Source of the DNA: Gemmatimonadaceae bacterium
GTDB taxonomy: Bacteria > Gemmatimonadota > Gemmatimonadetes > Gemmatimonadales > Gemmatimonadaceae
Reading direction: 5' to 3'
DNA: 64,000 nucleotides
Assembly: GCA_036493735.1 (NCBI GenBank)
Contig: DASXPH010000047.1
Span: 1,619-65,618, forward strand
Below the pieces are notes generated by a model. It saw only the letters and a program-made list of their open reading frames with translations. It had not been told where the DNA came from and searched no databases. Shown piece after piece: positions 1,757 to 55,644 of this stretch (the first letter of the stretch is position 1; each line of letters opens with the position of its first letter). Position numbers and translations under genes: made by a program.

Positions 1757-1826
1757 GTGATCGGTGGACGGTGGTCGGTAAACCTCGACAATGATCACGG
1801 TCCACCGTCCACCGATCACCGTGCCC
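1757..1826 (-). terminator. Heptad-periodic hairpin element downstream of the SusD-like gene
   Basis: Perfect 18-bp inverted repeat: GTGATCGGTGGACGGTGG (1757-1774) and CCACCGTCCACCGATCAC (1802-1819), with a 27-nt loop. The whole element reads as about 10 successive 7-mers (GTGATCG GTGGACG GTGGTCG ... CGTCCAC CGATCAC). Confidence 0.6.
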
Positions 1827-1898
1827 GACCACGCAAAACAACGATGGCCCGAGCTTTCGCCCGGGCCATCGCTGGTTCCAACTACCTAACGAAATCGA

Positions 1899-3311
1899 CT
1901 ACGGCTGCGGTGTGACGTTGCCATTACGCGCAGCGGCTTCGGTCGACGGCATCGGGAGTGCCGTCTGCAGGGGATCGCCGGAGTGCGACAGATCCGTCGA
2001 AACAGTCGGCATGCCCGCTTGTGAGACGTACGCCTTCGTGATCGTGCCGTACTCGCGGGCCGCGATCAGGTAATACGGCCCTTCGTAAATGAACGAGTAG
2101 CGGTACTCGTAGAGAATCGCGGTGCGAGCAGCAGGCAAAGAGGCGAACGTCGCGTACGGCGCGAGGCCGCCTTCGCCAACGCGAACGACGTTCACGTCCG
2201 CCGTGGCGCCAAGAAGATCGCCGCTTTCCGCTTTCGCCTGCGCGCGGAGCAGATAGAACGCCGCATTGCGGACGATCGGGATTGGCCGGGTGAGGTTGCT
2301 GGCGATCGTCGGATCCGTTACCGGATCTCGCATCGTCAGCTCAACCCCGTTGACGATCGACGACGGCGAGCTCGCCGTTGCGATCTTCGACGCGCGGAGG
2401 TCGCCAGCCTGGATCGAGTTAGCGAAGTTGTCCGTCAGGTAGACGTGGTTGTCAACCATCGGGTTCGAGAACGACTCCGGCGAGCTGGGATTGAACTGGT
2501 AGTATGGGCCCGCCGCGAGGTCGGTTGCCGACGCGCCGCCCAACGCGGCGTTCAGCGCCGTGATGCCCGTCGCGAAACAGGTCGGGCAGGGCGTCTGGTG
2601 ATCGAAGCCGCGGTACGTCTCTACCATCCCTTTCAGACCACGGTTGAACGTGATCAGGTTGGCGGTCTTCGTATAGTCACCGTCCTGCTTGAATCCACTC
2701 GGTAGCGTGAACGGCACGGTCGCGCTAGCCGAGGCGAAGTTCGTGTTCGCGGAATCGAGGAGCGCGGAGATGTAAGCGAGGACGACGCTCTTCGTGCGAA
2801 TCGGATCCGCCGTCGCGCCTTGCGAGATCTGGATCGCAACCCCGAGCGAATCGCGCAGCTGAATGAGGCGAATGTAGTCCAGTGCCTTCATCGTCTGCAC
2901 GAAGCCGATTGTTGCCGCCTTGTCGCCCGCCGTCATCGTGTTGAGCGACGGGCTGACGATCAGCTGGTTGGCGGCACGGATCTCCGAGTAGTAGCCGCTC
3001 CACGCCGAGCCGCCGATGAAATCGCTCGGATCGATCGGTACGGCGACGAACTCGTTGAGGTATCGCGGCTCGTTGGTGTCCATCCGGACCGAGTTGCGTG
3101 CCTCGGTCTCGGGGAAGAGGAGATAGCTGAAGGCCATCGCCGACGCACGATCCTGCGCGACGACACCGGTGACGAGATTCTGAATGGGCTGCGCCGTACC
3201 GGCCACGATGTTGTCCTGGCTCGGTGCGTTCAGCGCATCCTTACAGCCCGCGGAGAGCGCCAGCACGGCGGCGCTCATCGCGGCAAATGTCTTTTTCATA
3301 TATGGAATCAA
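1899..3311 (-). CDS. SusD/RagB-family nutrient-binding outer-membrane lipoprotein
   Basis: 470 aa with a lipoprotein signal (AAVLALSAGC). It lies 6 nt downstream of a SusC-type transporter gene. Its size and sequence character fit the SusD family. Confidence 0.85.
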   Translation of the reverse strand: MIPYMKKTFAAMSAAVLALSAGCKDALNAPSQDNIVAGTAQPIQNLVTGVVAQDRASAMAFSYLLFPETEARNSVRMDTNEPRYLNEFVAVPIDPSDFIGGSAWSGYYSEIRAANQLIVSPSLNTMTAGDKAATIGFVQTMKALDYIRLIQLRDSLGVAIQISQGATADPIRTKSVVLAYISALLDSANTNFASASATVPFTLPSGFKQDGDYTKTANLITFNRGLKGMVETYRGFDHQTPCPTCFATGITALNAALGGASATDLAAGPYYQFNPSSPESFSNPMVDNHVYLTDNFANSIQAGDLRASKIATASSPSSIVNGVELTMRDPVTDPTIASNLTRPIPIVRNAAFYLLRAQAKAESGDLLGATADVNVVRVGEGGLAPYATFASLPAARTAILYEYRYSFIYEGPYYLIAAREYGTITKAYVSQAGMPTVSTDLSHSGDPLQTALPMPSTEAAARNGNVTPQP

Positions 3312-3317
3312 TCTCTG

Positions 3318-6300
3318 TTAGAAGTTGACGTCGGCAGAGAAGAAGAACTGGCGACTCGGCGGGTACGGTGCGAGATCCCACATCCGGCTGAGCGCCGCGT
3401 TACCGAAGTTCGAAACTTCCGGATCGAGGCCGCGATAGTGCGTCCACGTGTAGAGGTTGCGGCCGCTCAGCTCGAGCCGCACGTCCTTCGCGGTGCCGCG
3501 GAAGAGCGTGTTCGTCAGGCGCGAGTTGAGCGAGTAGGACAACGTCACCTCGCGGAGCTTGGCGAAGCTGCCGTGCTCGAGGAATGCTGGCAGGCCCTTG
3601 GCGTACGCGCCCTGGTCAGCGTTGTTCATGGCCGTATCAGCGAGGTTGCCGCCAGGAATGCTGCTCTGGCCGTTCGCTCCCTGCTCGAGATAGGTCTGGC
3701 TCAGATCGGCGACCCAGCCGCCCTTGCGCCAATCGATCAGCGTCGAGAGGCGGAACGGTCCAGCCGTAAAGTCGTTGCCGAAGCCCATCGTCCAATCCGG
3801 GCTCTCGGAGCCGTAGAACTGCTCGATGCGATTGCCTTTCGAGTCGAAGCCGTTGTAGGCGACGACTTCGTCTTGTGCATAGCCAACCTGCACCTTGGTG
3901 CGCGCGGTCCGCTCGCCGAAGCCGCTACCGGTATAGAAAGCCGGCACCGGAAGGGACGTCACCATCCCGCGATTGCGCGCGTAGCTCGTGTGCGACTCCC
4001 ACGTGAAGGCGTGGGTCTGCACGGGGACCAAGCCCAGGCCGATTTCGGCGCCCTTGTTGGTGAGCGAGCCGCCGTTAATGACCTGCGTCGTGAAACCGGT
4101 CGATGGCGCGGGCGACGCCTGGAGCACGAGGCCCGATGTACGCTTGTCGTAGAGCGTGAACTCCGCCTGGCCGCGGCCGTGGAGGAACTGCACGTCGACG
4201 CCGCCTTCCGTCTCATTCGTGACTTCCGGCCGCACGTTCGAGAGACCGATCGTCGTCGACGGACGCAACCCGACGATGCCGTTCTCCGGCACCTGAGTGA
4301 GGAAGGTGTACTTGAAGTTCACCGGCACGCGGTTGCCCGCCTGGCCGTTCGCGATACGGAACTTGATGTTGTCGATGCCCGTCGGCGCGAAGGGCAGGTT
4401 GTACGACGCCGAGAATTTCGGAAAGGCGTAGAAGCGCGCCGTGTCACCGTTGGTGCTCGAGCGCTCGGCGTTCACGGCCGCCGTGAGGAACAACCGGTCG
4501 CTCAAGGTCGAGAGCTCTTCCTGGGCATAGTACGAGAACGTCTTGGAGAGCGATTGCGCCTGGAACTGGCCCGTCTGTACCCCGGTCGTCACGTTGGTGA
4601 TGCCGGGGAACAGGCCGCGGCCCTGATTCAGGAGCTGATCGGACTGCTGGCGCTCCTGACGCAGGCCTAACGAGGTCGTCGCCGTACCGAAGCGCGCGAT
4701 GAGCTTGTGAATCAGCGACGCGTTCAGGTTCGCGTTCACGACGTCGGTGTTGCCGTCGACGACCGTGCCGGGATACGGACTGATGTTGTGGCTCTGCTCG
4801 ATGTAGGTGTTCGGCGGCGAGTACAGATGAGCATGATCGTTGAATGCATCGACGCCGGCGAGGGTCGTGAAGTTCAGCGTCTGCCGCTCGTTGGCGAAGA
4901 CGCTCCAATTTGCCTGGACGTTGCCGATGAGGCGATAGACATCCTCCGGCGTGCGAATGTCCTCCTGGTCCTGCAGCACGTTCGCGCCGCCGGCGATGTA
5001 CGGATTCCTCACGTACTGGCCAGTCAGCGGATCGCGACGGCTCGGATCGAACCAGGTGGGAGTCGCACCGATGATCGTGTACGGCGCGATGTTGTTGTTG
5101 TCGTTGCCCGAGATGCCGCGCTCGGTGAGCGTGTGCATCAGCTCACTCGTGCCGGTGAGGTTCACCGGGCCGACGAGCTGGTTGAGGTTCAGGTGCAGCG
5201 ACTGCTTGCTGTAACCCGAGTTCACCGCCAGGCCGCCGTCGTGGCTAACAGAACCCGAGGCGAAGTACGTCGTGTTTTCATTGCCGCCGCGAAGCGACAG
5301 CGCGTCCTCATACGACAGAGACTTATGACCGTAGAGTTGCTGCTGCTCGTCGACGCAGCCCGCGTAATCGGCCTGGGTGAGGTTGACCTTGTACACCGTC
5401 AGCGCGATCTGCTGGGCGTCGGCGAAGCTGAAGCAGCGCATGTCGTAGCTCTTCGAGATTGCCTGCGTGCCGACGCGCTGCACGAAGTTGAGCGTCGGCT
5501 TGCCAGCCTGACCCTTCTTCGTGGTGATGATGACGACGCCATTGGCGCCTCGCGATCCATAAATGGCACCCGCGGACGGTCCCTTGAGGATCTCGATGCT
5601 CTCGATCTCTTCGGGATTCAGGTCGGCGATACGGTTGACCTGTTGGTCCTGGCTATTCGTGATGCCGCCGCCGGCGCCGGTGATCGAGTTCAAGCCGATG
5701 CCGAAAGCGTCATTGTTGACGATGATGCCATCGACGACGTAGAGAGGCTGGTACGCGCCGTTGATGGTGTTGCTGCCGCGAATCTGGAGCTGCACACCGC
5801 CGCCAGGCGCACCGCCGTTCTGGGTGATGACGGCGCCGGGCACCTTGCCCATGAGCGCGTTGTCGACCGTCGGCTGCGGCACACGGTTGATCTCGCCAGT
5901 GCCGACGACGGTGACCGCGTTCGCGGCGTTCTGGCTCGACACAGAGGTGGCCTGACCAGTCACGACGACTGTCTCGAGCTGGAGGAGATCCTGATCGAGA
6001 CGGATGTCGGCGACGTCGATGCCGGCGCCGAGGAGCTGCGTCGCGCGGCGATAGCCGATACGACGAGCGACCAGCACCTGCTGGCCCGCGGGGACGTTGT
6101 TGATCGCGTAACGCCCGTCTTGGTTGGTGATGGCGCCGAGGGTCGTACCCTGGACGGAGACGGTTGCGTTAGGCACTGGGACGCCGCTCGTCTCGGTAAC
6201 GCGGCCGGTGACCCGTCGCTGCGCCGAGGCGGCGGCGGCGGTGGTCACGCTGACGAGCAACGCGAGGAGACCAGTGACGAGATGGGAGCGATGCCACCGG

Positions 6301-6356
6301 AACGCGGACGCAAACCGCGGCGGCACCTGGAGGGGGTGCGAGAAGGCCGTTCGCAT
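3318..6356 (-). CDS. SusC/RagA-family TonB-linked outer-membrane transporter
   Basis: 1012 aa. It has an N-terminal carboxypeptidase-regulatory-like domain (TGRVTETSGVPVPNATVSVQGT..DGRYAINNVPAG), a plug motif (IESIEILKGPSAGAIYGSRGANGVVIITTKKG) and a C-terminal terminal Phe (..FFSADVNF). Confidence 0.9.
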   Translation of the reverse strand: MRTAFSHPLQVPPRFASAFRWHRSHLVTGLLALLVSVTTAAAASAQRRVTGRVTETSGVPVPNATVSVQGTTLGAITNQDGRYAINNVPAGQQVLVARRIGYRRATQLLGAGIDVADIRLDQDLLQLETVVVTGQATSVSSQNAANAVTVVGTGEINRVPQPTVDNALMGKVPGAVITQNGGAPGGGVQLQIRGSNTINGAYQPLYVVDGIIVNNDAFGIGLNSITGAGGGITNSQDQQVNRIADLNPEEIESIEILKGPSAGAIYGSRGANGVVIITTKKGQAGKPTLNFVQRVGTQAISKSYDMRCFSFADAQQIALTVYKVNLTQADYAGCVDEQQQLYGHKSLSYEDALSLRGGNENTTYFASGSVSHDGGLAVNSGYSKQSLHLNLNQLVGPVNLTGTSELMHTLTERGISGNDNNNIAPYTIIGATPTWFDPSRRDPLTGQYVRNPYIAGGANVLQDQEDIRTPEDVYRLIGNVQANWSVFANERQTLNFTTLAGVDAFNDHAHLYSPPNTYIEQSHNISPYPGTVVDGNTDVVNANLNASLIHKLIARFGTATTSLGLRQERQQSDQLLNQGRGLFPGITNVTTGVQTGQFQAQSLSKTFSYYAQEELSTLSDRLFLTAAVNAERSSTNGDTARFYAFPKFSASYNLPFAPTGIDNIKFRIANGQAGNRVPVNFKYTFLTQVPENGIVGLRPSTTIGLSNVRPEVTNETEGGVDVQFLHGRGQAEFTLYDKRTSGLVLQASPAPSTGFTTQVINGGSLTNKGAEIGLGLVPVQTHAFTWESHTSYARNRGMVTSLPVPAFYTGSGFGERTARTKVQVGYAQDEVVAYNGFDSKGNRIEQFYGSESPDWTMGFGNDFTAGPFRLSTLIDWRKGGWVADLSQTYLEQGANGQSSIPGGNLADTAMNNADQGAYAKGLPAFLEHGSFAKLREVTLSYSLNSRLTNTLFRGTAKDVRLELSGRNLYTWTHYRGLDPEVSNFGNAALSRMWDLAPYPPSRQFFFSADVNF

Positions 6357-6849
6357 GCTGCTAGGCTACCTCAAGTGTGATGGGGGAGGGCTCGCGAGGT
6401 AAGCGAGTAAAAACGAGCTAAGCCGTATTGCGTGTGATACGCTACTAGACTGTAATCGGCTGTAACAACTTGCGGAACCGCGAGACGGTCACTTTCTCGC
6501 GCGAACCGGCCGAAATTTCATCTTAAGCGTTCGCTCACATCCGATTCGGCGACCTCATGGTGATGAAGTGTCGGTTAAGAATCGTTTGCCCACTGGCGCT
6601 AAGGCTGCACGCGTATTACGGCGCTGCCTTACGAGTGTGGCGTTGAGGGGATGCGAACTCGGGGCTTGACGGTAGTCCGTCGATCAGCTACGCCGCGGCC
6701 CGTTTCACGGCCCTCGGAGTCGGTTCTGTCGTGGAGGCGCGTCGGCCCGTGGAGGAATGTCCAGGCGGGTCTGCAATGAAGAAGCCCTGGGCAAATGCAC
6801 GCTATAGCGACTTTCGGCCTGGCGGTCCGGCGGCTAAGATTGCCGACCC

Positions 6850-9231: not shown

Positions 9232-9232
9232 C

Positions 9233-10396: not shown

Positions 10397-10428
10397 TCAG
10401 GTCGTATCACGTAGCACCGAGGCATCTC

Positions 10429-14920: not shown

Positions 14921-14965
14921 AGGGCTACTAGTTGACCTCTTTCGGGTGCTCCGTCAAGTCGGGGC

Positions 14966-15007
14966 GCGTGGCCCGTGGCGCGTGGCGCGTGGCGCGTGGG
15001 GCGTGGC
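14966..15007. repeat. Six tandem copies of the heptamer GCGTGGC in a divergent promoter region
   Basis: The sequence reads GCGTGGC CCGTGGC GCGTGGC GCGTGGC GCGTGGG GCGTGGC. No complementary arm lies nearby. Confidence 0.8.
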
Positions 15008-15121
15008 GCGTAAAGACGTCGAACCGCGAAATGTCCCGTTTCGGCCACGAGATACGAATAAAGAATAAGTCGGAAGCCAGACTTGCTCGCGATCGAACCA
15101 ACAACGGGAGAGCTCAGATTC

Positions 15122-15796
15122 ATGTTCACAACGCTGACCACGACGCGCCGCGCGATGCTTGCCGCATCGCTCGCGACGATTGCCGCAGGCGCCGCCATCA
15201 CCGTGCACGCGGGCGCACTCCAGGCGGATACGAAGCCTGCCGCGCACAACGTGCCGAGCAACAACTGGCTCAAAGGGCTGAAGGCGAAACACAAGCAGTT
15301 CTTCGACAATCCTTCACCGAACGGCGGGGTCGCGCTCGTGCATGTGATGAACTATTACGACACCTATAACAAAGCCTTCAATGTGAAGGACTCCGACATC
15401 GACGCGGTGCTCACCTTCTACGCCGCGACCACCTTCTATGGGCTGAACGACGCCGCGTGGGCGAAGTACGATCTTGGCGAGTTTCTCGACGCGAAGGATC
15501 CCGCGACGGGCAAGCCCGCGACGGCCAATCCATGGCGCACGGCGCCGGTGGTCCTCGGTATGACGCTGCCGTCAGCGAGTATCGAGTCGCTCCATAAGCG
15601 CGGCGCGACGCTGATTATGTGTAACAATGCGCTGACGATCTTCTCCGGCTTGCTCGCGGCGAAGCGCGGGCTCGACGCGAAGGTGGTCTACGAAGACCTG
15701 CGCGCGAACATTCTCCCGGATGTTCAGTTGGTGCCGGGGATGGTGGTCGCCGTCGAACAGGCGCAACGAGCGGGGTTGAGCTACCACCGCCAGTGA
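15122..15796 (+). CDS. Tat-exported protein, possibly DsrE/DsrF-like fold
   Basis: ATG at 15122 gives MFTTLTTTRRAMLAASLATIAAGA (twin-arginine signal). The family assignment is tentative and made by eye. Confidence 0.5.
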   Translation: MFTTLTTTRRAMLAASLATIAAGAAITVHAGALQADTKPAAHNVPSNNWLKGLKAKHKQFFDNPSPNGGVALVHVMNYYDTYNKAFNVKDSDIDAVLTFYAATTFYGLNDAAWAKYDLGEFLDAKDPATGKPATANPWRTAPVVLGMTLPSASIESLHKRGATLIMCNNALTIFSGLLAAKRGLDAKVVYEDLRANILPDVQLVPGMVVAVEQAQRAGLSYHRQ

Positions 15797-15814
15797 ACCC
15801 GTTGGTGTTGAGCA

Positions 15815-15864
15815 GTGGGCGTTGGGCCTTGATCGCTAGACGCCAAACGCGGAACGCCCAACGC
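15815..15864. terminator. Heptad-type hairpin between convergent genes
   Basis: GCGTTGGGC (15819-15827) pairs with GCCCAACGC (15856-15864). The flanks read as GCGTT-type 7-mers. The element overlaps the stop of the 15864..16316 gene. Confidence 0.4.
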
Positions 15865-16316
15865 TATGAGCTCAGTACGTCGCTTCGTTTCAGTTCGTCG
15901 GTGAGCCAGCGGGCGCCCGCTACGATGGCGCCCGCGATCGGCATGAGAATGAGCGCGCGCACCAGGAGTGTCACCGTGTTCGTCATGGCGCCCGCGAGGG
16001 CGGCACTGAACCCGGCCGGCATAACGAGCCGGCCGGCGAGATCGGCGACGACGCCCCCGCAGAAAATGGTGGCAGCAATGATCAGTCCCGCGCCGAGCCA
16101 GTTGTCGTCACGCAGCCAGATCACGACGCCGACAACATAGATCGCGGCCACCAGCCAGAGCAGACTCGTGAGGAAGGCCGCGGTCGCGCTCATCGGCGCG
16201 AGCGTCGTCAACAACTTGGCGACGGTCCGCACCATCGTGTACACGGCGGCGGGGAGGAGCACCGAGGCGGCCTCCGGCCCGTCCAATTGAATGCGAAAAT
16301 CTACCCCTTTGCTCAT
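15864..16316 (-). CDS. Hypothetical integral membrane protein
   Basis: 150 aa with about four hydrophobic helices. Confidence 0.55.
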   Translation of the reverse strand: MSKGVDFRIQLDGPEAASVLLPAAVYTMVRTVAKLLTTLAPMSATAAFLTSLLWLVAAIYVVGVVIWLRDDNWLGAGLIIAATIFCGGVVADLAGRLVMPAGFSAALAGAMTNTVTLLVRALILMPIAGAIVAGARWLTDELKRSDVLSS

Positions 16317-31981: not shown

Positions 31982-34405
31982 ATGGATCGCTTGCGTCAGG
32001 ATATACGCGTCGCGCTGCGCGGCTTCCGCCGCACCCCATCGTTCACGATCACCGCCATCGCGATCCTCGCCATCGGGATCGGCATGGCCGTCGCGATGTT
32101 CACTGTCTACGACGCGGTGGTCGTTCGGAATCTGCCCGTTCCGGCGCAGGACCGGATCGTCGAGCTCTTCACCTATCGGGACAACCCGAACACCGACTAC
32201 TACCTGTTGCGCGGCGATCTGCGCCAGGTCGCGGCGGGCAGCCTAACGATGCACGACATTGCCGGCGTCGCGCACTGGGGCGAAGTAACGGCGCCATTTC
32301 TCGACGGCGACCGAACGCTCATTATCGGGCGGACATTCGTTAGCGGCAACTTCTTCGACGTGCTCGGTGCCCGGCCGCTGCTCGGCCGCTTCATGCGACC
32401 GAGCGATGACCTGCCTGGCGCCGCGCCGGTGCTCGTGCTCAGCTACAGCGCGTGGAAGCGCTTCTTCGACGCCGATCCACACGTCGTCGGCAGGAAACTG
32501 GTCGAGCCCTACTCGCGACGTGGCTTCGAGGTCATCGGCGTCGCGCCAGCGGGATTGGATTATCCCACGGGCGTCGGCGTCTGGATGCCACCCTGGCAAC
32601 CGTCGGACAATCTCTCCGTCATCGCCCTCGCGCGGATCGCGCCCGGCGCGTCGGTGCGTGACGCACAGGAGGAATTTTTCGCGAAGATGCGCCGCCTGCC
32701 CCAGATCGACGTCGGCGGTCCTCGCGACTACAAGGGTGTGCACATTCGTACCTTCACCCAGGCGGTCGTCGGCAACGTTCGGCCGACACTCGTGACGCTC
32801 ACGGCGGCTGTCGGTCTCCTGCTGCTCATCGCGTGTGTCAACGTCGGCAACCTCCTCCTCGTGCGCGCCGCGGAACGAGCACGCGAGCTCTCGATACGTC
32901 GCGCGCTCGGCGCATCATTGGGTATGATCGTCAGGCAGCTCGTGGTCGAGAGCGCGCTGCTCGGGGTTGCCGGTGGCGTGCTCGGCTTCCTCACCGCTAT
33001 CGCGCTCATCAAGCTCCTCATTGCCGCCGCGCCGCCCAAGTTGCCACGGCTCGACGACATCGCTATTGCCGGCATGCCGCTCGGCATGGCGCTTCTCGTC
33101 ACCATCGGCGCCGTGGGCCTCTTTGGTGTGGTGCCCGCGCTGCTTGGCTCGTCGTCCGAGCTCGCGTCGCCGCTGCGCTTCGATTCGCGCGCGGGACGGA
33201 CGACGCGTGGCGGCCAGCGGCTGCGTCGCACGCTCGTAGGGTTGCAGGTGGCACTCGCCCTCGTCATGCTCGCCGGCGCCGGCCTGCTCGTCCGCAGCCT
33301 CGAGCACCTCCAGAGCATCACCCTCGGTTACAACCCGGAGCACCTCACGCTCGTCGACGTGACGTTCACGCCTAACGAATACGGTGGCGTGTCCGGCAAC
33401 GTCGATCAGCGCAAGCTGAACAATCTCGCGGACCTTCTGGTGCCAGCGTGGCGGGCGATTCCGGGGGTTGCCGGCGTGACCCCGTCGCTGGTCCCGCCAT
33501 TTCTCGGACCGGGTATCTTCGTCGGCCCCGCGCTCAAAGAGGGCAACTCGCCGCAGGAGGACAAAGCCGCGCCCCAGATGCCCGTCGAGGCGGGGGGAAC
33601 GGACTACTTCCGCGTCATGGGCATTCACCTCCTGCGCGGCCGAGGCTTCACCGACGCGGACCGGGAGGATGCACAATATGTCGCCGTCGTGAGCCAGAGC
33701 GCGGCGCGGCGTCTGTGGCCTAACGAAGACCCGATCGGCAAGCGGATGCATTACTGGTCTGCGGATACGATCTGGCGCACCGTCGTCGGCGTCGCTGACG
33801 ATATTCGGTGGCGATCGCTCCGCGATCCGACGCCGACGATCTACTTGCCATGGCGACAGGCGTACTGGCAGGGGTCTTTCGCCATCCGGACGTCCGGCGA
33901 TGTCAGCGCGGTTCTCCCCGCCATCCGTCGCGCGACGCACGAGATCAATCCCGTGCTGACGGTCTGGGAGGCGCTTCCGATGGACAACCTGCTCGCGGGT
34001 CCGCTCGCGCAGCCGCGCCTCGGGGCGTTGCTTCTTGGCGCGTTCGCGTTTGTGTCGATGCTGCTGGCGGCGATTGGCCTGTATGGCGTAATGGCGGCGA
34101 TCGTGACGGCGACGACCCGGGAGATCGGCGTCCGCGCCGCCCTTGGCGCGAGCCCAGAGCGGCTGCGTCGTGACGTTCTCGCCGAGGCGTTAGGCATGGC
34201 CGGTGCGGGCGTCATGGTCGGGTTGGTCGTCGCGCTCGGCGCGTCGCGTCTGCTGTCGTCATTGCTGTTCGAGGTGAGCCCCGGCGATCCACTTGCGGTG
34301 ATTGGCGCACTCGTCGTCCTGCTCCTCGTCGCGCTCGGGGCAGCGTACATTCCAGCGCGTCGCGCGACTCGCATCGACCCAGCGACGGCGCTCCGGGCTG
34401 ATTGA
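31982..34405 (+). CDS. ADOP/MacB-like permease, paralog 2
   Basis: 807 aa. The N-terminus is MDRLRQDIRVALRGFRRTPSFTITAIAILAIGIG. It has duplicated FtsX modules and the C-terminus RIDPATALRAD. Confidence 0.85.
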   Translation: MDRLRQDIRVALRGFRRTPSFTITAIAILAIGIGMAVAMFTVYDAVVVRNLPVPAQDRIVELFTYRDNPNTDYYLLRGDLRQVAAGSLTMHDIAGVAHWGEVTAPFLDGDRTLIIGRTFVSGNFFDVLGARPLLGRFMRPSDDLPGAAPVLVLSYSAWKRFFDADPHVVGRKLVEPYSRRGFEVIGVAPAGLDYPTGVGVWMPPWQPSDNLSVIALARIAPGASVRDAQEEFFAKMRRLPQIDVGGPRDYKGVHIRTFTQAVVGNVRPTLVTLTAAVGLLLLIACVNVGNLLLVRAAERARELSIRRALGASLGMIVRQLVVESALLGVAGGVLGFLTAIALIKLLIAAAPPKLPRLDDIAIAGMPLGMALLVTIGAVGLFGVVPALLGSSSELASPLRFDSRAGRTTRGGQRLRRTLVGLQVALALVMLAGAGLLVRSLEHLQSITLGYNPEHLTLVDVTFTPNEYGGVSGNVDQRKLNNLADLLVPAWRAIPGVAGVTPSLVPPFLGPGIFVGPALKEGNSPQEDKAAPQMPVEAGGTDYFRVMGIHLLRGRGFTDADREDAQYVAVVSQSAARRLWPNEDPIGKRMHYWSADTIWRTVVGVADDIRWRSLRDPTPTIYLPWRQAYWQGSFAIRTSGDVSAVLPAIRRATHEINPVLTVWEALPMDNLLAGPLAQPRLGALLLGAFAFVSMLLAAIGLYGVMAAIVTATTREIGVRAALGASPERLRRDVLAEALGMAGAGVMVGLVVALGASRLLSSLLFEVSPGDPLAVIGALVVLLLVALGAAYIPARRATRIDPATALRAD

Positions 34406-34501
34406 TCGGTGAACGGTGGTCAGTGATCGGTGATCGATAGACCTCAGTTCACGACTCACAGCTCACCGTTCACTGTTCACCGTCCACCGACCCTACCGAC
34501 C
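34404..34501 (+). repeat. Intergenic spacer made entirely of about 14 successive 7-mers, self-complementary (terminator-like)
   Basis: The spacer reads GATCGGT GAACGGT GGTCAGT GATCGGT GATCGAT ... AGTTCAC GACTCAC AGCTCAC CGTTCAC TGTTCAC CGTCCAC. It runs from the permease stop to the next start codon. Confidence 0.75.
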
Positions 34502-35260
34502 ATGAGCGACACGAACCCGACCCGTCGTGAATTTCTGCAGCGCTCGGCTGCGACCGCGGCGCCGGCTCTGATCGGGCTGCATGCATCGCTACCATCGGGC
34601 GCAGCTCCGCTGAAGGTGGTCTGCGTCGGCGGTCATCCCGACGATCCTGAATCTGGCTGCGGCGGGGCGCTCGCTCGTTACGCCGCTGCCGGCGATTCCG
34701 TGACCATCGTCTATCTCACACGCGGCGAGCGCGGCATCGACGGCAAGTCGCTGGACGAGGCGGCGCGCATTCGCACCGCGGAGTCGGAGTCGGCGTGCAA
34801 GTTTATAGGCGCAAAGCCGGTCTTCTTTGGCCAGATCGACGGCGCGACGGAAGTCACCCATGCGCACGTCGACGCGATGACGAAGCTGCTCGCCGCCCAG
34901 CAGCCGGACGTGCTGTTCGCGCACTGGCCGGTGGACACGCACATGGACCACCAGGTTGCGAGCTTACTCACCATCCGCGCGTGGATGCAGCTCCGCAGCC
35001 CGGCACTCTACTTCTTCGAGGTAAACAGCGGCAGCCAGACCGAGGGATTCTACCCGAACACTTACGTGGACATCTCGGCTGTCGTCGAGCAGAAGAAGCG
35101 CGCGCTCTTCGCGCACGTGAGCCAGGACGGCCAGGGTATCTGGCGCGAGCACCACGCGATCATGGCAACGTGGCGTGGACGCGAAGCAGGTGTGGCCGCG
35201 GCCGAAGGTTATGTGCACCTCGATCGCGTGAGCACGACAAGCAAGCTTCCCGGGATGTGA
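34502..35260 (+). CDS. PIG-L/LmbE-family deacetylase with a Tat signal
   Basis: ATG at 34502 (MSDTNPTRREFLQRSAATAA). It has the VGGHPDDPESGCGG motif plus later HxDH. Confidence 0.8.
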   Translation: MSDTNPTRREFLQRSAATAAPALIGLHASLPSGAAPLKVVCVGGHPDDPESGCGGALARYAAAGDSVTIVYLTRGERGIDGKSLDEAARIRTAESESACKFIGAKPVFFGQIDGATEVTHAHVDAMTKLLAAQQPDVLFAHWPVDTHMDHQVASLLTIRAWMQLRSPALYFFEVNSGSQTEGFYPNTYVDISAVVEQKKRALFAHVSQDGQGIWREHHAIMATWRGREAGVAAAEGYVHLDRVSTTSKLPGM

Positions 35261-35262
35261 TT

Positions 35263-35293
35263 GCGTGGCGCGGGACGCGTGGCGCGTGACGCG
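35263..35293. repeat. Short GCGTGGC-type heptad array between convergent genes
   Basis: The sequence reads GCGTGGC GCGGGAC GCGTGGC GCGTGAC GCGAC. It is the same heptamer as at 14966-15007. Confidence 0.5.
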
Positions 35294-47240: not shown

Positions 47241-47259
47241 GGGTCTCCCGCGCTCGAAG

Positions 47260-48126: not shown

Positions 48127-48138
48127 CGCTCGCCGGAG

Positions 48139-48840: not shown

Positions 48841-48981
48841 CGGAGCTTTCTCGATCAGGGTCGGACCTCAAGGACAGTCAGCGGTCAACGTGTCAGCCTT
48901 CTCTAACACGGCCGGCCGACGCACCTCTACGACGAACGAGATCCTTGCCGCGCCACACTCCCTGATCGTTACATTAGCCCG

Positions 48982-49542
48982 ATGGAGCTGACGATCCGGC
49001 CGCTGACGCCCGACCTCTGGCCCGCGCTCGAGGAGCTGTTCGGTCCACTCGGCGCGTGCAACGGCTGCTGGTGCATGTACTGCCGGATCGGCGCCGAGTA
49101 CAAGAAGCGACCGCGCTCGAAGAACAAGGCCGACTTCCGCGAGATCGTTAGGCATGGACCGCCGCCCGGATTGCTCGCGTTCGATGGCGAGCTCGCCGTC
49201 GGCTGGTGCCAGCTCACGCCCCGAGATGCGGTGCCCTGGCTGGATCGGACCTGGCGCCTCAAGCGCGTGGACGATTTGCCCGTCTGGTCGCTTTCGTGCC
49301 TGTACATCCGAATCGGTTACCGCCGGCGGGGCGTCTCGACGGCGCTCGTGAGGGAAGCGTTGCGTGTCGCGAAGCGGGCGAAAGCGCCGGCACTCGAGGC
49401 GTATCCCTTCGACGCCGAGCTGTCGCCGAGCTCCACCAGCACCGGCTTTGCGTCGACGTTCACGAAGCTCGGATTCAAGGTCGTCGCGCGGCGCATTCCG
49501 GCGCGGCCGATCATGCGTCACGACCTGAAGAAGATCACCTGA
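48982..49542 (+). CDS. GNAT-family N-acetyltransferase
   Basis: 186 aa with a YIRIGYRRRGVSTALVREAL acetyl-CoA-binding motif. Confidence 0.75.
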   Translation: MELTIRPLTPDLWPALEELFGPLGACNGCWCMYCRIGAEYKKRPRSKNKADFREIVRHGPPPGLLAFDGELAVGWCQLTPRDAVPWLDRTWRLKRVDDLPVWSLSCLYIRIGYRRRGVSTALVREALRVAKRAKAPALEAYPFDAELSPSSTSTGFASTFTKLGFKVVARRIPARPIMRHDLKKIT

Positions 49543-49807
49543 TAGGCAAGAGCGGCGCCGTTCGACGGATCCAGATGAGTGCCGTGCCTAACGTCACAGA
49601 TGACGCGCCTACATTGCGCATCACGAGGCGCAGGGGCGTGTTGTCCGAGGCGTTCCCGGTCGAAAGTGCCCGCGCACGCGCCGTCACTCGTGCATGGTGA
49701 CGCAAGCCACGGTGAGACTGTTTTTATTTCTTAACTTCTCTGGGCACGCCGCAAGTTGCACGACGTTCTGGCGAAATACGGATTCACTCACCGACTGTTC
49801 GAGGTTT

Positions 49808-50239
49808 ATGACCACACGTGCGATGATTCCTGCCGGTCTCGCTCAGCGCGCGGAGCCGGAGACGTTCCGCGCCCGTAGCGTATCGGCGGCGCTGTTCGTG
49901 AAAGACATACAGAAGAGCCTCGTCTGGTACCGTGACAAGGTCGGCTTCTTCGTCGATCAGCAGATCCAACGCGGCGGCAAGCTGAACGCCGTTGCGCTGA
50001 AGGCCGGTGATGTGCGAATTGTCATCACCCAGGACGACGGCGGCACCGGGTGGGATCGCGTGAAGGGCGCCGGGTTCGCCTTGCAGTTCACGACGGCGCA
50101 GGACCTCGACGGGCTTGCGGAAGCCATCAAGCAGCGCGGCGGCTATATCGACTCACCGCCAAAGGTCGTGGGCGGAACGCGCGTACTCCAACTGAAAGAT
50201 CCGGATGGATTCAAGCTTCTGATCTCGGCGGCCGGCTAG
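49808..50239 (+). CDS. VOC (glyoxalase/bleomycin-resistance) family protein
   Basis: ATG at 49808. It contains LFVKDIQKSLVWYRDKVGF...LKDPDGFKLLI. Confidence 0.75.
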   Translation: MTTRAMIPAGLAQRAEPETFRARSVSAALFVKDIQKSLVWYRDKVGFFVDQQIQRGGKLNAVALKAGDVRIVITQDDGGTGWDRVKGAGFALQFTTAQDLDGLAEAIKQRGGYIDSPPKVVGGTRVLQLKDPDGFKLLISAAG

Positions 50240-50242
50240 AAC

Positions 50243-50298
50243 GCGTTGCGCGTTGCGGGTCGAGCGTTGAGCGTGGCGCCCAACGCCCAACGCTCAGC
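50243..50298. terminator. Heptad-periodic imperfect hairpin between convergent genes
   Basis: The element reads GCGTTGC GCGTTGC GGGTCGA GCGTTGA GCGTGGC GCCCAAC GCCCAAC GCTCAGC. GAGCGTTG pairs with CAACGCTC. Confidence 0.6.
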
Positions 50299-50301
50299 CA
50301 A

Positions 50302-52068
50302 TCACTGCTGACATGAGCCGTGCGGATCTGGCTTCGGGTGATCGACCATCACCCGATGATCCAGGTTCGCGACATGGACCGCCACGTCCTCGATGAACGA
50401 CGCGATCCGCGCCATGTGATCGTAGTCGATGTATTCCGGCTCATCCGTCACCTGGTGGTAATCCGAGTGCACGCCCGTCGTGAAGAACACGATCGGGATG
50501 CCGTAGCGCGCGTACGCGTAATGGTCGCTGCGGCAGTAGATGTTCTCCGGATGCCCATTGGCGTCGAATGAATAGTCGAAGACGAGGCCATGCTTGTCCG
50601 CTGTATTCACACGTTCGATGAGATCGCCGAGCTCTGTGGAGAGGCGCCGCGAACCGACGAGCATCAGCAAACGCGAATTGCCGTGGAGTGGCTTTCCGTC
50701 CTTATCGTCGCCGATCTGGTCCCACGCGTCGCCCCGGCCAACCATGTCCATGTTGAGCTGCGCGACAATCGAATCGCGCGGCACCGTGGGATGATCGGTG
50801 AAGTACATCGAGCCGAGCAGACCTTTCTCCTCGCCGACGTGAAAGACGAACAGCATCGATCGCTTTGGCGCCGGCCTGACCGCGGCCAGGCGCTCCGCGA
50901 TCTCGAGAACCGTCACCGTGCCACTGCCATCGTCGTCCGCGCCATTGTAGATCGAATCGAGACGGGTTTCGCCGGGGTGCGCGGCGCGCCACGCCGCGAG
51001 CTGCTTGTTCACCTCGAGCTGCTGTTCCGGCGTCGCGTGGGCGGCTGCTTGCTCGGCGCCGCCGGGCCTGACGATATGGTTGTAGATGCGAACCGAGTCG
51101 TGATCCGCCGGCGCGTGGTTGAGGCCGACGTGGTCCGTGTGCGCGCCGATCGCGACGTACTGGCCCCGCAACTTCGGATCGCTGCCGGGGAGAAGCGCGA
51201 TGACGTTGCGCGCTGGAAAGGGCATCGGACCCGTGTGCACGTGGATCTCGATGTCCGCGGGCTTGCTCACTGTGCCGACGGCAATCGTGCCTAACGGTGC
51301 ACCGAAGATCTGCGACGCGGCGCTGTCGGTAAGATAGACAAGCGAGCCGAGGGGGCCATTGTTGGCACCGCCGGCATCCAGGATCTGCTGAGGCTCCGTG
51401 AAGAAGGGGAGGAACTGGGTGGGGCCAACGACCATCATGCCGGCGCTCCGCGACGCCACGGCGCCGATTGCGCGCAGACCGCCCTGAAAGTCTGTTGGCG
51501 AGAGGCGGCCGAGGACAACCTTCCCCGCGAGCGAATCCAATCGCATGAAGCTGGAGTCGCCGAGCACCCCGCCGTAGACGATCGGCTGATCGTGACGCAC
51601 GATGTCGGTCGGCGTCGACGCGCCCCATTCTCGCCCGAATGGAAGCTTGGTGTCGCCCGTGGCAATGACCGAGCTGGAATCGATCGAGCGATTCTTGAAT
51701 GGCAGAACCTGGAAATACGTGCCGCTGTCGCCTGCTGGCTTCAGGCCCATTCGCTTCAATTCGGCAGCGATGTACGCCGTCGCTTTCACATTGCCGATGG
51801 CACCGGCATCGCGCCCTTGCATGGAGTCGTCGGCGACGATGTAGAGACGTGTCATCAAGTCGGCGGCGGAGATCGCGGCGCTCGTCGGGCGCGGCTGATG
51901 CGTACGGGGGAGCCGCGTCGCTGGTAGAGGCACCACCGCGGATGCTTGTTCGGCCGGCGCTTGCGCGAGCGTCAGCGACGGAGCGAGAAGGGCGGCCAGG
52001 AACAGCTGGGTCGCGACGCACGGCAGGCGGAGCTTGAACAACTCGAGCAGCATGCGAGCAACGCGCAC
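50302..52068 (-). CDS. M28-family metallopeptidase, paralog B
   Basis: 588 aa. It has the same motif set as paralog A and the same C-terminal ending (HPKPDPHGSCQQ vs APKPDPHGQCRQ). Confidence 0.85.
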   Translation of the reverse strand: MRVARMLLELFKLRLPCVATQLFLAALLAPSLTLAQAPAEQASAVVPLPATRLPRTHQPRPTSAAISAADLMTRLYIVADDSMQGRDAGAIGNVKATAYIAAELKRMGLKPAGDSGTYFQVLPFKNRSIDSSSVIATGDTKLPFGREWGASTPTDIVRHDQPIVYGGVLGDSSFMRLDSLAGKVVLGRLSPTDFQGGLRAIGAVASRSAGMMVVGPTQFLPFFTEPQQILDAGGANNGPLGSLVYLTDSAASQIFGAPLGTIAVGTVSKPADIEIHVHTGPMPFPARNVIALLPGSDPKLRGQYVAIGAHTDHVGLNHAPADHDSVRIYNHIVRPGGAEQAAAHATPEQQLEVNKQLAAWRAAHPGETRLDSIYNGADDDGSGTVTVLEIAERLAAVRPAPKRSMLFVFHVGEEKGLLGSMYFTDHPTVPRDSIVAQLNMDMVGRGDAWDQIGDDKDGKPLHGNSRLLMLVGSRRLSTELGDLIERVNTADKHGLVFDYSFDANGHPENIYCRSDHYAYARYGIPIVFFTTGVHSDYHQVTDEPEYIDYDHMARIASFIEDVAVHVANLDHRVMVDHPKPDPHGSCQQ

Positions 52069-52261
52069 GGTCGGTCTCCATCAGCAGAATGGGAGTTCGA
52101 AGATAGCAGGTAGGCGGGCGGTGCTGCAGCCATGAGACCCCGGACAATGCGCAACGCACTTGACGCTTCTTGCTCGCCGCGCGACGATTCGCGCCGCAAA
52201 GCGGTTCTCCGCGTCCCTCCGCGCACTCCGTGCGCTCCGCATCGTACCCGAGCCGTACCCC

Positions 52262-53908
52262 ATGAAAAGCACCGTACTGGTTTGTCTCTTCGTCCTCGGC
52301 GCCTGCAAGGGCGACATCACCGATAGCCAATCGAATGAGCCGAGCACGACGAACCCTCAGACGGTATCGGTGCTCACCCAGCATAACGACAATACGCGCG
52401 CCGGCTGGAACGCCAGCGAGACCGCGCTGACCACGAGCAGTGTGAATGTCCAGCACTTCGGCAAACTGTTCACGCTGTCGGTCGACGACCAGGTGTACGC
52501 GCAGCCATTGGTGGCCGGAGGGATCACCATTCGCGGCGGGCTACACAACGTGGTGTACGCCGCCACCGTCAACAATTCGATCTACGCGTTCGACGGGGAC
52601 AACGGCAAACTGTACTGGCAGCGGAATTTCACGGCGCCTGGCATGCGTCCGACGCGAAATACCGATCTCGCCGGAGCGTGCGGCGGTACGTACACGGATT
52701 TCATCGGCAACATCGGAATCGTCGGCACGCCGGTGATCGATGGCGCGAAACACACCATCTACTTCGTCACGCGCAGCATCAGCGGCAGCGACAACGCATT
52801 CGTACAGCACCTGCACGCGGTAGACATCGTCACTGGAAGTGAAGTCGCCGGCAGCCCGGTCGTGATTACTGCGACCGCGAACGGCAGCGGTGACGGAAGC
52901 GTCAACAACCTCATCACCTTCGACGCCGAGCGTCAGAACCAGCGGCAGGGGCTGACCCTTCTCAACGGCGTCGTGTACGTGACGTTCTCATCGTATTGCG
53001 ATTGGGGTCCATATCACGGCTGGATCCTCGGCTACGACGCCAAGACGCTCCAGCAGCAGGTCGTCTACAACGCAACGCCCGACGGATCTGCGGGCGGCAT
53101 GTGGGAGAGCGGCGCTGGCATGGCCGCCGATGCTCAAGGCAATCTGTACATAGTAGTCGGCAATGGCACTGTCGGGACCACGAGCGATCCAACGAGTTCG
53201 AGGAATCGCGGAGAGAGCGCTCTCAAGCTGACCCGCAGCGGCGCGACCCTTCAGGTGGCCAGCTACTTCACTCCGAGCAATTACCAACAGCTCAACGACG
53301 GCGACCTGGATTATGGCGGCCCCGGTGCGTTTCTGATACCCAATTCGAGCTATTACTTCACGGGCGCCAAGGATGGCACCCTCTACCTGCTGAACAAGGA
53401 CGCGATGGGTGGCTATCAGTCGTCAGGCAACGCCGTTCAGCAAACCGTATCGTTAGGCTCCTCCGTCAACCTGCATTGCCAGCCTGCGTACTACAAGGGC
53501 GCAACGAAGGAGTTCGTCTACGTCTGGTCCGAGAACGATGCGTTGCGCGCGATCCCGTTCGATCGCGGCAGCAGCATGTTGGACGAGGCTGGTCAGGTCA
53601 CGATGGCTTCCGGCGGGCCCACGGGGCTCAGCGGTGCGCTGCTGTCGGTTTCATCGAACGGAAGCGTGGACGGCACCGGCATCGTCTGGGCATCGCACTC
53701 CTATGGTGGCGATGCGGGGCACGCCGTCGCCGATGGCATCCTTCGCGCCTTCGATGCCAGTGACGTCACGAAGGAGATCTGGAACAATCGGCAGACGGCG
53801 CCGGACGCGGCGGGAAAGTTCGCGAAGTTCGCCCCGCCGACCATCGCCAACGGCCACGTCTACCTGCCGACGTTCTCCAATCAGATCGCGGTCTACGGAC
53901 TGCGCTGA
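52262..53908 (+). CDS. PQQ-like beta-propeller repeat lipoprotein
   Basis: ATG at 52262 (MKSTVLVCLFVLGAC). It has repeated ..VYAQPLV..VVYAATVNNSIYAFDGDNGKLYWQ.. blades. Confidence 0.7.
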   Translation: MKSTVLVCLFVLGACKGDITDSQSNEPSTTNPQTVSVLTQHNDNTRAGWNASETALTTSSVNVQHFGKLFTLSVDDQVYAQPLVAGGITIRGGLHNVVYAATVNNSIYAFDGDNGKLYWQRNFTAPGMRPTRNTDLAGACGGTYTDFIGNIGIVGTPVIDGAKHTIYFVTRSISGSDNAFVQHLHAVDIVTGSEVAGSPVVITATANGSGDGSVNNLITFDAERQNQRQGLTLLNGVVYVTFSSYCDWGPYHGWILGYDAKTLQQQVVYNATPDGSAGGMWESGAGMAADAQGNLYIVVGNGTVGTTSDPTSSRNRGESALKLTRSGATLQVASYFTPSNYQQLNDGDLDYGGPGAFLIPNSSYYFTGAKDGTLYLLNKDAMGGYQSSGNAVQQTVSLGSSVNLHCQPAYYKGATKEFVYVWSENDALRAIPFDRGSSMLDEAGQVTMASGGPTGLSGALLSVSSNGSVDGTGIVWASHSYGGDAGHAVADGILRAFDASDVTKEIWNNRQTAPDAAGKFAKFAPPTIANGHVYLPTFSNQIAVYGLR

Positions 53909-54035
53909 CTCGAGGGCTAGGGTGGCGAAGGTTCTGACCGCCCGGGCTGCATCGCGATCCTTTGTGGTGCAACAAAGAATCAACGCGGGCAACCTGCCCT
54001 CCGCACCGATCGCTTGACTTTCATCGTGAATAGTT

Positions 54036-54060
54036 GAATTTTGAACGCGTTCAAAAATTC
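54036..54060. promoter_or_regulatory. AT-rich near-perfect palindrome 18 nt upstream of the membrane-protein/DCC/TetR operon; candidate TetR operator
   Basis: GAATTTTGAACG|CGTTCAAAAATTC, with one extra A in the right arm. TTGACT at 54014-54019 could be a -35 element. Confidence 0.5.
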
Positions 54061-54078
54061 TCCCACAGCGAGCGATCC

Positions 54079-54492
54079 ATGGACATCATCGTCACGACGT
54101 ACCTCATCTACCTCGGCCTCAGCATCGTCATCACCATCTGGGTGGCGCGGGCCCTCTTCAAGAACGGCTTGATCTTCCTCGTCGACGTGTTTGCTGGAAA
54201 CGAGGCGCTCGCCAGCTCGGTAAATCACCTGCTCGTAGTGGGCTTCTACCTCATCAACCTCGGCTTCGTGGCGCTGGCGCTGCGAATAGCGACGCCGGTT
54301 CCCGACGCACGCACGAGCATCGAGGCGCTCGCCTCCAAGATCGGAACGGTGCTCCTCGTGCTCGGCACGATGCACTTCTTCAACTTGTACGTCTTCAGCC
54401 GCTTGCGTCGAAATGCGAGGCTCGAGCTCGCGCCACCGCCAGTCGAGCCGGATGCGTGCACCGCCGTGCGGGCGGCCGCGGCTCATGCGTGA
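54079..54492 (+). CDS. Hypothetical 4-TM membrane protein
   Basis: ATG at 54079 (MDIIVTTYLIYLGLSIVITIWV). Confidence 0.55.
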   Translation: MDIIVTTYLIYLGLSIVITIWVARALFKNGLIFLVDVFAGNEALASSVNHLLVVGFYLINLGFVALALRIATPVPDARTSIEALASKIGTVLLVLGTMHFFNLYVFSRLRRNARLELAPPPVEPDACTAVRAAAAHA

Positions 54493-54859
54493 CCTGACCG
54501 TCCTCTACGACGCGACATGCGCGCTCTGCGTCGACGCGCGGAGGTGGCTCGAGGCGCAGCCGAAGTTCGTACGACTGCGCTTCCTGCCAGCTGGTTCGCC
54601 CGGCGCTGCCGCACGGTTTCCGGAGTTGAACCCAGCCGACACGCTGCGCGACATCACCGTCGTCGACGACGCGGGGAACGTATATCGCGGCCCCAAGGCA
54701 TGGGCGATGTGCTTATGGGCGACACGGAGCTACCGCGGCTGGTCACAGCGCCTCACCAGTCCCGAGCTGTGGCCGATGGCAAAGCGTATGATTGCGTGGG
54801 TCTCGCGGAATCGAGGTTCACTGGCGCCAGCGGGTGGCTGGGCGCTTCGGAGGTTGTGA
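54485..54859 (+). CDS. DCC-family thiol-disulfide oxidoreductase (DUF393)
   Basis: ATG at 54485 overlaps the upstream stop (ATGCGTGA). It has the YDATCALCVDARRWL motif. Confidence 0.75.
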   Translation: MRDLTVLYDATCALCVDARRWLEAQPKFVRLRFLPAGSPGAAARFPELNPADTLRDITVVDDAGNVYRGPKAWAMCLWATRSYRGWSQRLTSPELWPMAKRMIAWVSRNRGSLAPAGGWALRRL

Positions 54860-55530
54860 TGGAGGTGACGAAGACGCGCAAGAGCGACGAGACTCGCGCG
54901 CGGATTCTCGAAGCGGCTCTGTCGTTGTTCCTCGAGCGCGGGTATCAGGAGACCACGATGCGCGCGATCGCGGATCGCGCCGGAGTCGCCGTCGGCAACG
55001 CCTACTACTACTTCGAGTCGAAGGAGCAGCTCATCCAGGCGTTTTATGCGCGCACGCATGCCGAACACGTCATCGCGAGCCGCGACGTGTTGGCGAATGC
55101 GAAGTCGTTCGCTGAACGATTGCGCGGCTTGATGCGCGCGAAGATCGAGACCATCGAACCCTATCACAGGTTTTCCGGCATACTCTTTCGCACCGCGGCG
55201 GATCCCGAGAGCCCGCTGCATCCGCTCAGTCCGGAGTCCGCGCCCGTGCGCGAGGAGGCGATTGCAATCTTCGCCGAGGCACTAGACGGATCGACCTTGC
55301 GCATTCCCTCCGATCTCCGCGCCGAGCTGCCACGCCTGCTCTGGCTTTACCACATGGGCATCGTGCTCTTCTGGATTCACGACAGCTCGCCCGAGCGTGT
55401 GCGCACGCGCCGACTCGTGGACGGCACGGTCAGCATAATCGCGAGTCTCGTGAGTCTTTCCGGCAATCCGCTGCTCCGGCCACTGCGCAAGCGCGCGCTT
55501 CGACTTCTTCGAGAGACGATGACGGAGTAA
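54859..55530 (+). CDS. TetR/AcrR-family transcriptional regulator
   Basis: ATG at 54859 overlaps the DCC stop (TGATG). The HTH is TRARILEAALSLFLERGYQETTMRAIADRAGVAVGNAYYYF. Confidence 0.9.
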   Translation: MEVTKTRKSDETRARILEAALSLFLERGYQETTMRAIADRAGVAVGNAYYYFESKEQLIQAFYARTHAEHVIASRDVLANAKSFAERLRGLMRAKIETIEPYHRFSGILFRTAADPESPLHPLSPESAPVREEAIAIFAEALDGSTLRIPSDLRAELPRLLWLYHMGIVLFWIHDSSPERVRTRRLVDGTVSIIASLVSLSGNPLLRPLRKRALRLLRETMTE

Positions 55531-55533
55531 AAC

Positions 55534-55644
55534 GATGGGCGATGGGCGACGGTGGGATTAGGAACGAAACTCTGATGAGGTAGCGAGCACTCTAGTTCAG
55601 CCACCCATGATCAAGGCTTCATTCCGAATTCCCCATCGCCCATC
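55534..55644. repeat. Heptad-type inverted repeat with a long loop
   Basis: GATGGGCGATGGG (55534-55546) pairs with CCCATCGCCCATC (55632-55644). Both arms are tandem GATGGGC/GCCCATC 7-mers. Confidence 0.5.

Follow-up and report, generated by a model that had tools for sequence, protein, structure and literature searches.

Heptad hairpins in the window

The window, by which is meant the whole 64-kb stretch of DNA analysed (positions 1619-65618 of contig C47), is part of the draft genome of a bacterium of the Gemmatimonadaceae (assembly 6.39 Mb, 64% G+C). It contains five intergenic hairpin elements in which a run of tandem 7-nt units (heptads) is followed by a run of the complementary heptads. 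They are treated here together with the similar elements found throughout the genome and with the S23p (PF05635) genes that such arrays bracket. Inspection of the sequence found all five in place where a preliminary description of this DNA had located them, from 1757, 15815, 34404, 50243 and 55534 onwards (loci 1 to 5). Tandem Repeats Finder (TRF) reports period-7 arrays in both arms at loci 1, 3, 4 and 5 (1796-1822, 34403-34436, 34463-34489, 50242-50279, 50277-50293, 55533-55549 and 55632-55649). None of the five loci carries an open reading frame (ORF), and no Rfam covariance model matched the 64-kb window at the gathering score.

Locus 1 (1757-1822) is a heptad hairpin of the GGTGAWC family. 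A loop (1780-1796) separates its G arm (1757-1779; GTGATCG GTGGACG GTGGTCG GT) from its C arm (1797-1822), and the hairpin lies 3' of gene 1899-3311 on the minus strand, past that gene's own terminator. The degenerate locus 2 (15799-15864) belongs to the GCGTTGR family; its G arm, at about 15799-15827, and its C arm, at about 15839-15864, fill the spacer from a TGA stop (15794-15796) to the stop of the convergent gene (15864-15866). Locus 3 (34403-34501) is again a member of the GGTGAWC family. A permease gene lies upstream, and its TGA stop codon forms the first letters of the G arm (34403-34436); the C arm (34448-34501) stops 1 nt short of the next ATG (34503). Locus 4 (50242-50295), of the GCGTTGR family, has the G arm at 50242-50276 and the C arm at 50277-50295; a TAG stop (50237-50239) precedes it, and the convergent gene on its other side has its stop at 50302-50304. 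Locus 5 (55533-55652) is a composite element with a (GATGGGC)n G arm (55533-55556), a conserved palindrome GGAACGAAAC...GCTTCATTCC (core C, 55557-55630) and a (GCCCATC)n C arm (55631-55652). It begins 3 nt past a TAA stop (55528-55530) and ends just short of the TTGACG box (55660-55665) of the next gene, 55698-56969, a promoter box that is conserved upstream of this gene in congeners (loci L013, L015 and L017).

The five loci had been described as folding back on themselves. RNA folding against 200 dinucleotide shuffles of each locus bears this out for four of them, with minimum free energies (MFE) of -40.1 kcal/mol for 1757-1826 (z -5.75), -40.7 kcal/mol for 34401-34502 (z -4.25), -31.4 kcal/mol for 50240-50301 (z -2.59) and -63.7 kcal/mol for 55531-55652 (z -7.35). 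The fold of locus 2 (15797-15866) is weak and degenerate (MFE -27.6 kcal/mol, z -1.40), and locus 2 is therefore regarded as a decayed copy. At locus 5 the supposed loop of about 85 nt is in fact the conserved palindromic core, so that all 122 nt fold as one hairpin. A hammerhead ribozyme was considered for this core, which holds CTGATGAG and CGAAAC motifs, and was rejected on account of their order and spacing and of the missing Rfam match.

Three further features lie in the window. A classical intrinsic terminator of gene 1899-3311 (1839-1874, minus strand; a 16-bp GC-rich stem and then TTTT) is placed between the stop of that gene and hairpin 1, and is context rather than a component of the repeat. 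A solo array of seven GCGTGGC-type heptads, for which no complementary arm was found, occupies a divergent spacer (14963-15011, plus strand). A second solo array, G-rich and of GCGTGGC/GCGGGAC type (35263-35293, plus strand), follows directly on a TGA stop between convergent genes.

Abundance and architecture in the genome

Seven is the commonest tandem period in the whole assembly according to TRF, with 1211 arrays; periods 6 and 8 have 325 and 273. With genes called by a custom codon-model caller (5382 genes, 89% coding), 73% of the period-7 arrays are intergenic, compared with 5-15% for periods 6, 8, 9 and 12. The 785 intergenic period-7 arrays stand against 15-23 (about 19) in five dinucleotide-preserving shuffles, an excess that upholds the period-7 signal reported for the window, while intergenic period 8 is not enriched (28 vs 22-32 in shuffles). 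Period-9 arrays are also enriched between genes (126 vs about 25 in shuffles).

The reverse complement of each array was sought in the 300 nt on either side. This gave about 300 paired elements genome-wide and 629 arrays with no detectable partner. The paired elements share one layout, a G/T-rich heptad arm at the 5' end, a core or short loop, and the complementary C/A-rich arm at the 3' end; the view of the window loci as a family with a common architecture is thus sustained. The complement lies downstream of 238 G-rich arrays and upstream of only 2, and C-rich arrays show the reverse polarity (240 vs 2). Because this polarity is near-absolute, every element reads G arm 5' and C arm 3' on both strands. 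The median arm is 31 nt long, or 4.4 units, and array copy number ranges from 2 to 16.

The composition of the G arms (52% G, 24% T, 13% C, 11% A) brings up a regulatory role of G-quadruplexes (G4), the G arm acting by G4 folding in DNA or RNA. Such a role has been proposed for the GGGAATC repeats of Xanthomonas and the GGGGAYT repeats of Nostoc (PMC4692102). GGGTAGA, AGGGGCT and GGGCGAT are classical G3N4 or G4N3 motifs, and a median of 4.4 units fits the four G-tracts that a G4 needs (PMC4692102). However, four runs of at least G3 occur in only 38 of 300 G arms, and the window families GGTGAWC and GCGTTGC/GCGTTGA are incapable of forming three-tetrad G4s. The heptamers that flank S23p genes in other phyla are often G-poor (AGGATTG, GGTTTTC, AGTAGCC), and the neighbouring complementary arm would compete by duplex formation. 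A G4 function is accordingly a very improbable explanation of these elements.

Heptamer families and cores

A few heptamers make up most of the arrays, in families of 20-100 arrays; the commonest are GGTGGCT (85 arrays), GGGTAGA (84), GCGTGGC (79) and GGTGGTT (68). The preliminary description gave each window locus a heptamer of its own and took this to speak against the spread of one mobile sequence. That inference fails because the five loci fall into three recurrent families, GGTGAWC (loci 1 and 3), GCGTTGR (loci 2 and 4) and GGGCGAT with core C (locus 5), each with its own conserved core, and the heptamers of such families recur throughout the genome tied to their cores.

The sequence between the arms is family-specific. 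Core A consists of AAGGCCGACGGC-loop-GCCGTCGGCCTT together with runs of A and of T, and has the form of a bidirectional terminator. It is found in 31 of the 43 elements with GGGTAGA arms, and 60 of its 69 copies are flanked by heptad arrays on one side or both. Core B, GAATTCGGA-GC hairpin-TCCGAATTC, accompanies GGTGGYT arms in 57 of 100 elements. Core C, GGAACGAAGCGTTGAT...ATCAACGCTTCGTTCC, is enclosed by GCGTTGR, GCGTGGC or GGGCGAT arms and has at least 26 closely similar copies, window locus 5 among them. In an alignment of these copies the outer stem is nearly invariant and the inner part poorly alignable.

Each unit of (GGTGGCT)n holds GCTGGTGG, which we take to be the Chi octamer of Escherichia coli, and (GCGTGGC)n holds GCGCGTG, presumably the Chi site of Lactococcus. 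With the G arm at the 5' end, such Chi-like sites would point outward from a break in the loop. Chi sites were rejected as an explanation of the elements, as they leave the other heptamer families unexplained. A second dispersed palindrome, GGAGCGAAGCGAAGGATCTGCTG...CAGCAGATCCTTCGCTTCGCTC, is present in about 12 copies (for example C24:34539, C147:80284 and C149:205) and is unrelated to the heptad cores.

Position relative to genes and occurrence in relatives

The location at gene 3' ends noted in the window holds for the genome. On stop-adjacent sides of elements (n = 307) the median distance to the stop codon is 0 nt, 73% are within 10 nt, and in about 40% the first units of the arm contain the stop codon; where a start codon is the neighbour, the median distance is 47 nt. 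The contexts of the elements are co-directional in 147 cases, convergent in 80 and divergent in 37, with 29 inside called genes, against background spacers of which 1832 are co-directional, 418 convergent and 746 divergent. The elements are thus about 2-fold enriched in convergent spacers and about 2-fold depleted in divergent ones. Solo arrays beside stops are G-rich on the sense strand (90:19 and 55:9), and those upstream of starts are G-rich on the antisense strand (46:13).

Congeners share 80-86% identity with this genome in coding DNA. Counts of (GGTGGYT)3 are 108 here and 53, 30, 14 and 1 in four congeners; six further congeners lack the sequence, as do 150 genomes from elsewhere in the phylum that belong to other genera. 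Period 7 exceeds periods 6 and 8 in stretches sampled from the congeners G002 and G008, with the same families; it is not prominent in those sampled from two other genera, of which one is devoid of S23p genes. Beside the congeneric orthologues of genes 50302-52068 and 55698-56969 the neighbours are different and a heptad element is missing.

These data bear on the possibility that the hairpins are RNA structures selected by the host, either as factor-independent terminators or as structures that stabilise the 3' end of the upstream mRNA. In favour of such a role, the folds have high stability (on average -65 kcal/mol for 110 nt), they begin at or a few nt from stop codons, and they are enriched in convergent spacers and depleted in divergent ones. 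A terminator-like GC hairpin with a T-run is also found inside the core in 96 of 300 elements, on both strands in 31; in copies with a core terminator, transcription from either side would end past the G arm and before the C arm. Against this, the lack of a trailing T-tract seen at the five window loci extends to 291 of 300 elements genome-wide (9 have one), and in the 147 co-directional spacers the sense and antisense folds are equal (68 vs 79, Wilcoxon p = 0.21). Strand-specific selection on the RNA was rejected, since the difference between sense and antisense fold energies carries no signal. Locus 1 is preceded by a separate classical terminator, and only about 6% of gene ends are followed by elements. 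The equal folds, the rarity of T-tracts, the terminator at locus 1 and the small share of gene ends therefore leave a host role at the RNA level unsupported. The copies in divergent spacers and inside called genes point the same way, as do the confinement of the GGTGGYT family to this genome and 4 of 10 congeners, with none in the 150 other genomes, and the comparison of orthologous spacers, in which two congeneric genes lack the adjacent element. Selection as terminators or stabilisers is on balance an unlikely origin of the elements.

S23p genes bracketed by heptad arrays

Three genes in the genome match PF05635. Two of these (C2:57915-58545 and C132:17950-18510) have (GGTGGTT)n on one side and (AACCACC)n on the other. 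Over about 560 bp these cassettes share 77% identity, which starts and stops within the arms, and the outer flanks are unrelated; cassettes bounded by the arms and placed at unrelated sites also count against the earlier argument that no mobile sequence had spread. The short cores were considered as remnants of S23p cassettes, a derivation that was set aside as cores A-C show no resemblance to the ends of the cassettes.

Eight relatives have 2-13 S23p genes each. About 24 of their 30 S23p loci are bracketed by inverted repeats, with a period of 7, 14 or 21 in at least 15. The arms include GGGTAGA, GGGCGAC, GGTGGTT, GGGGCTA, GCGTGGC and GCGGGAC, most of which also form families of gene-less hairpins in the present genome. 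In relatives of genus g2 the S23p genes are flanked by arrays of 15-18 nt and not by heptads.

A cross-phylum scan with a 7-sequence S23p alignment, restricted to one genome per species, gave 80 S23p loci from at least 12 phyla. The inverted-repeat score between upstream and downstream sequence exceeds the 99th percentile of mismatched pairs at 43 of 75 scan loci. The congeners and the scan together provided 102 loci with at least 300 nt on both sides of the gene, of which 83 have an array of period 7n on one side and 75 on both, with a median of 4.4 copies. Array density is 7.4 per kb within 100 nt of the S23p ORF and 0.2-0.4 per kb at 200-1200 nt, and the array with G>C comes first at 54 of 62 loci. 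Between phyla, S23p proteins are 55% identical where the heptamers are identical and 45% identical where these differ at 4-5 positions (within-phylum permutation p ~0.0015). The data indicate that heptamer repeats and S23p belong together.

The S23p proteins are members of TIGR02436 and show a weak match to Avd of diversity-generating retroelements (DGR). Their closest relative of solved structure is XCC0516 of Xanthomonas campestris (PDB 2gsc, five chains, E 1e-35), and a review of Coxiella intervening sequences calls the 2gsc structure a homopentamer. GGGAATC repeat no. 15 of X. campestris, with four units, abuts XCC0516 and overlaps its start region (supplementary table of PMC4692102); the gene is listed there only as 'conserved', and the passages of the paper that were searched make no link to S23p. 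Full-text literature searches gave no paper that ties S23p to heptamer repeats.

Probable origin and spread of the elements

The five window loci are probably gene-less members of foldback-repeat families, units of the same kind as the S23p cassettes. Being of the same kind, the window copies are comparable to ORF-less forms, and may relate to the cassettes as ORF-less intervening sequences or MITEs (miniature inverted-repeat transposable elements) relate to gene-bearing forms. The elements would spread or be copied as units, their arms would afterwards lengthen and shorten by slippage, and they would persist in the dispensable stretch from a stop codon to the promoter that follows. Effects on the transcript would be secondary: RNase III could cleave the long stem, 3' exonucleases could be halted by it, or termination could occur at the core, which carries a terminator in a third of the copies. 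The repeat families, the polarity, the position at stop codons, the linkage of core and heptamer and the bracketing of S23p genes here, in congeners and in other phyla are matters of direct observation.

Several results weigh against this account of the window loci as gene-less relatives of S23p cassettes. Both arm-flanked S23p copies share a frameshift just past the conserved IAEG motif (C2:58099-58412 and C132:18100-18359), which means duplication of a cassette that was already defective, or else translation through the shift. The third S23p copy has no arms, and given this and the frameshift there is no evident intact cis partner for the 300 copies. The link between protein and heptamer could reflect co-transfer and not a functional tie. 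No insertion event was caught among the congeners: no clean empty site with conserved neighbours was found in them for loci 4 and 5 (50243 and 55534), and the Logan contigs from four soil metagenomes all end at the element. Target-site duplications were not detected, the longest word shared by the two flanks averaging 3.61 nt as against 3.49 nt in mismatched pairs. No match to the Y1 transposase (PF01797) was obtained in the genome by a search that matched 6 of 14 control genomes, and no candidate transposase was found. Finally, the unit variants of one arm recur in mirrored order in the other to a weak degree only (mean z 0.65; z > 2 in 24 elements, z < -2 in 4), and slippage therefore appears to produce much of the arm sequence locally, after copying. 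A search for motifs in the flanks of the elements also found none.

The weak mirroring and the missing target-site duplications would be expected if the elements were ordinary microsatellites, generated by slippage independently at each spacer, with the inversion as a by-product and with neither mobility nor a partner protein. The variation in copy number from 2 to 16 and the 629 arrays with no detectable partner agree with this as well. Slippage alone, however, does not give the strict 5' placement of the G arm (238:2), nor does it account for a small set of heptamers turning up again and again, at dozens of unrelated sites, with non-repetitive cores specific to each family. It also leaves unexplained the preferred length of 4.4 units and the 20- to 30-fold concentration of arrays beside S23p genes across phyla. 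Independent slippage is for these reasons an improbable source of the families, and their relationship to S23p cassettes is the preferred interpretation.

A further step, tentative and at present somewhat doubtful, is that S23p is the sequence-specific partner of the heptamer arrays, the two together forming a widespread element that is self-propagating or processes transcripts. The preference for 4-5 units and the pentameric relatives of S23p suggest one subunit per heptad; as a speculation, each 7-nt unit might be recognised by a single S23p subunit, and the preferred number would follow from this.

Relation to known repeats

The closest likeness is to the heptameric G-rich repeats of Xanthomonas campestris and X. 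axonopodis (GGGAATC) and of Nostoc PCC 7120 (GGGGA(C/T)T) (Rehm et al. 2015, PMC4692102). These are likewise intergenic and made of tandem 7-nt units, with about four units preferred, and each of these genomes has 70-75 convergent pairs with the G arm first, the same orientation as here (PMC4692102). The solo arrays of the present genome resemble them in being G-rich on the sense strand beside stops, which in Xanthomonas and Nostoc means within 50 nt, and on the antisense strand upstream of starts (PMC4692102). In contrast to them, many heptamer families coexist in the present genome, most of them incapable of forming three-tetrad G4s, and between the arms lie conserved cores, specific to the family and in some cases terminators.

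The intervening sequences of 23S rRNA in Leptospira, Coxiella and Salmonella have terminal inverted repeats whose pairing gives a stem of about 28-31 bp that encloses a loop, and are considered selfish, with an unknown origin (Warrier et al. 2016, PMC4990558). The elements described here likewise fold into a long stem by their inverted ends. In the rRNA sequences the loop may hold an S23p/PF05635 gene, and ORF-less forms and forms with a decaying ORF exist (PMC4990558); in the present genome the two copies that enclose such an ORF are both frameshifted, and the five window loci enclose none. The present copies differ in following the stops of protein genes and not lying in rRNA helices 25 or 45, in having heptad arrays as arms, and in numbering hundreds per genome. 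RNase III excises the rRNA intervening sequences from the transcript; in the present genome the copies lie between protein genes, and no 23S rRNA gene is present in the assembly.

With repetitive extragenic palindromic (REP) sequences, bacterial interspersed mosaic elements (BIMEs) and REP doublets forming hairpins (REPINs), the elements have in common that hundreds of short intergenic palindromes lie mostly past gene ends. As in the system of REPs and their RAYT transposases, a cognate gene is flanked by inverted repeats and the families are lineage-specific. The earlier separation from classical REP/BIME elements is nevertheless justified: the genome has no RAYT/Y1 transposase, the bracketed gene encodes a 110-aa four-helix bundle with no known catalytic activity, and the arms are of variable length and have an internal period of 7 nt, which REPs do not have. 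Unlike MITEs, the elements have no target-site duplications and no identified transposase relative, and unlike intrinsic terminators the five window loci have no U-tract directly after the hairpin. In Geobacter metallireducens, multicopy paired tandem hepta- or octanucleotide sites have been read as binding sites of a global regulator (Aklujkar et al. 2009, PMC2700814). They too have four tandem 7- or 8-nt units, mostly in opposite-strand pairs at variable distance, but differ in unit sequence and are described with neither hairpin cores nor a link to S23p (PMC2700814).

Significance

Two descriptive puzzles meet in these elements. The short tandemly repeated repetitive (STRR) heptamer sequences of cyanobacteria were first reported around 1990, and we know of no agreed origin or function for the heptamer tandem repeats of several bacteria. 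S23p/PF05635 is a large family related to Avd of diversity-generating retroelements, and to our knowledge it has no known role. The statistical link between S23p and heptamers is what the present analysis adds, and it merges the two puzzles into one question, whether S23p binds its own heptads and to what effect. If S23p is the partner of the arrays, one model would cover the STRR and GGGAATC repeats, the gene-less hairpins of this genome and the intervening sequences of 23S rRNA. For some Gemmatimonadaceae the elements fill a large share of the spacers that follow genes, they break short-read assemblies, and in about 40% of the genes that they abut the stop codon is provided by the element or overlaps with it.

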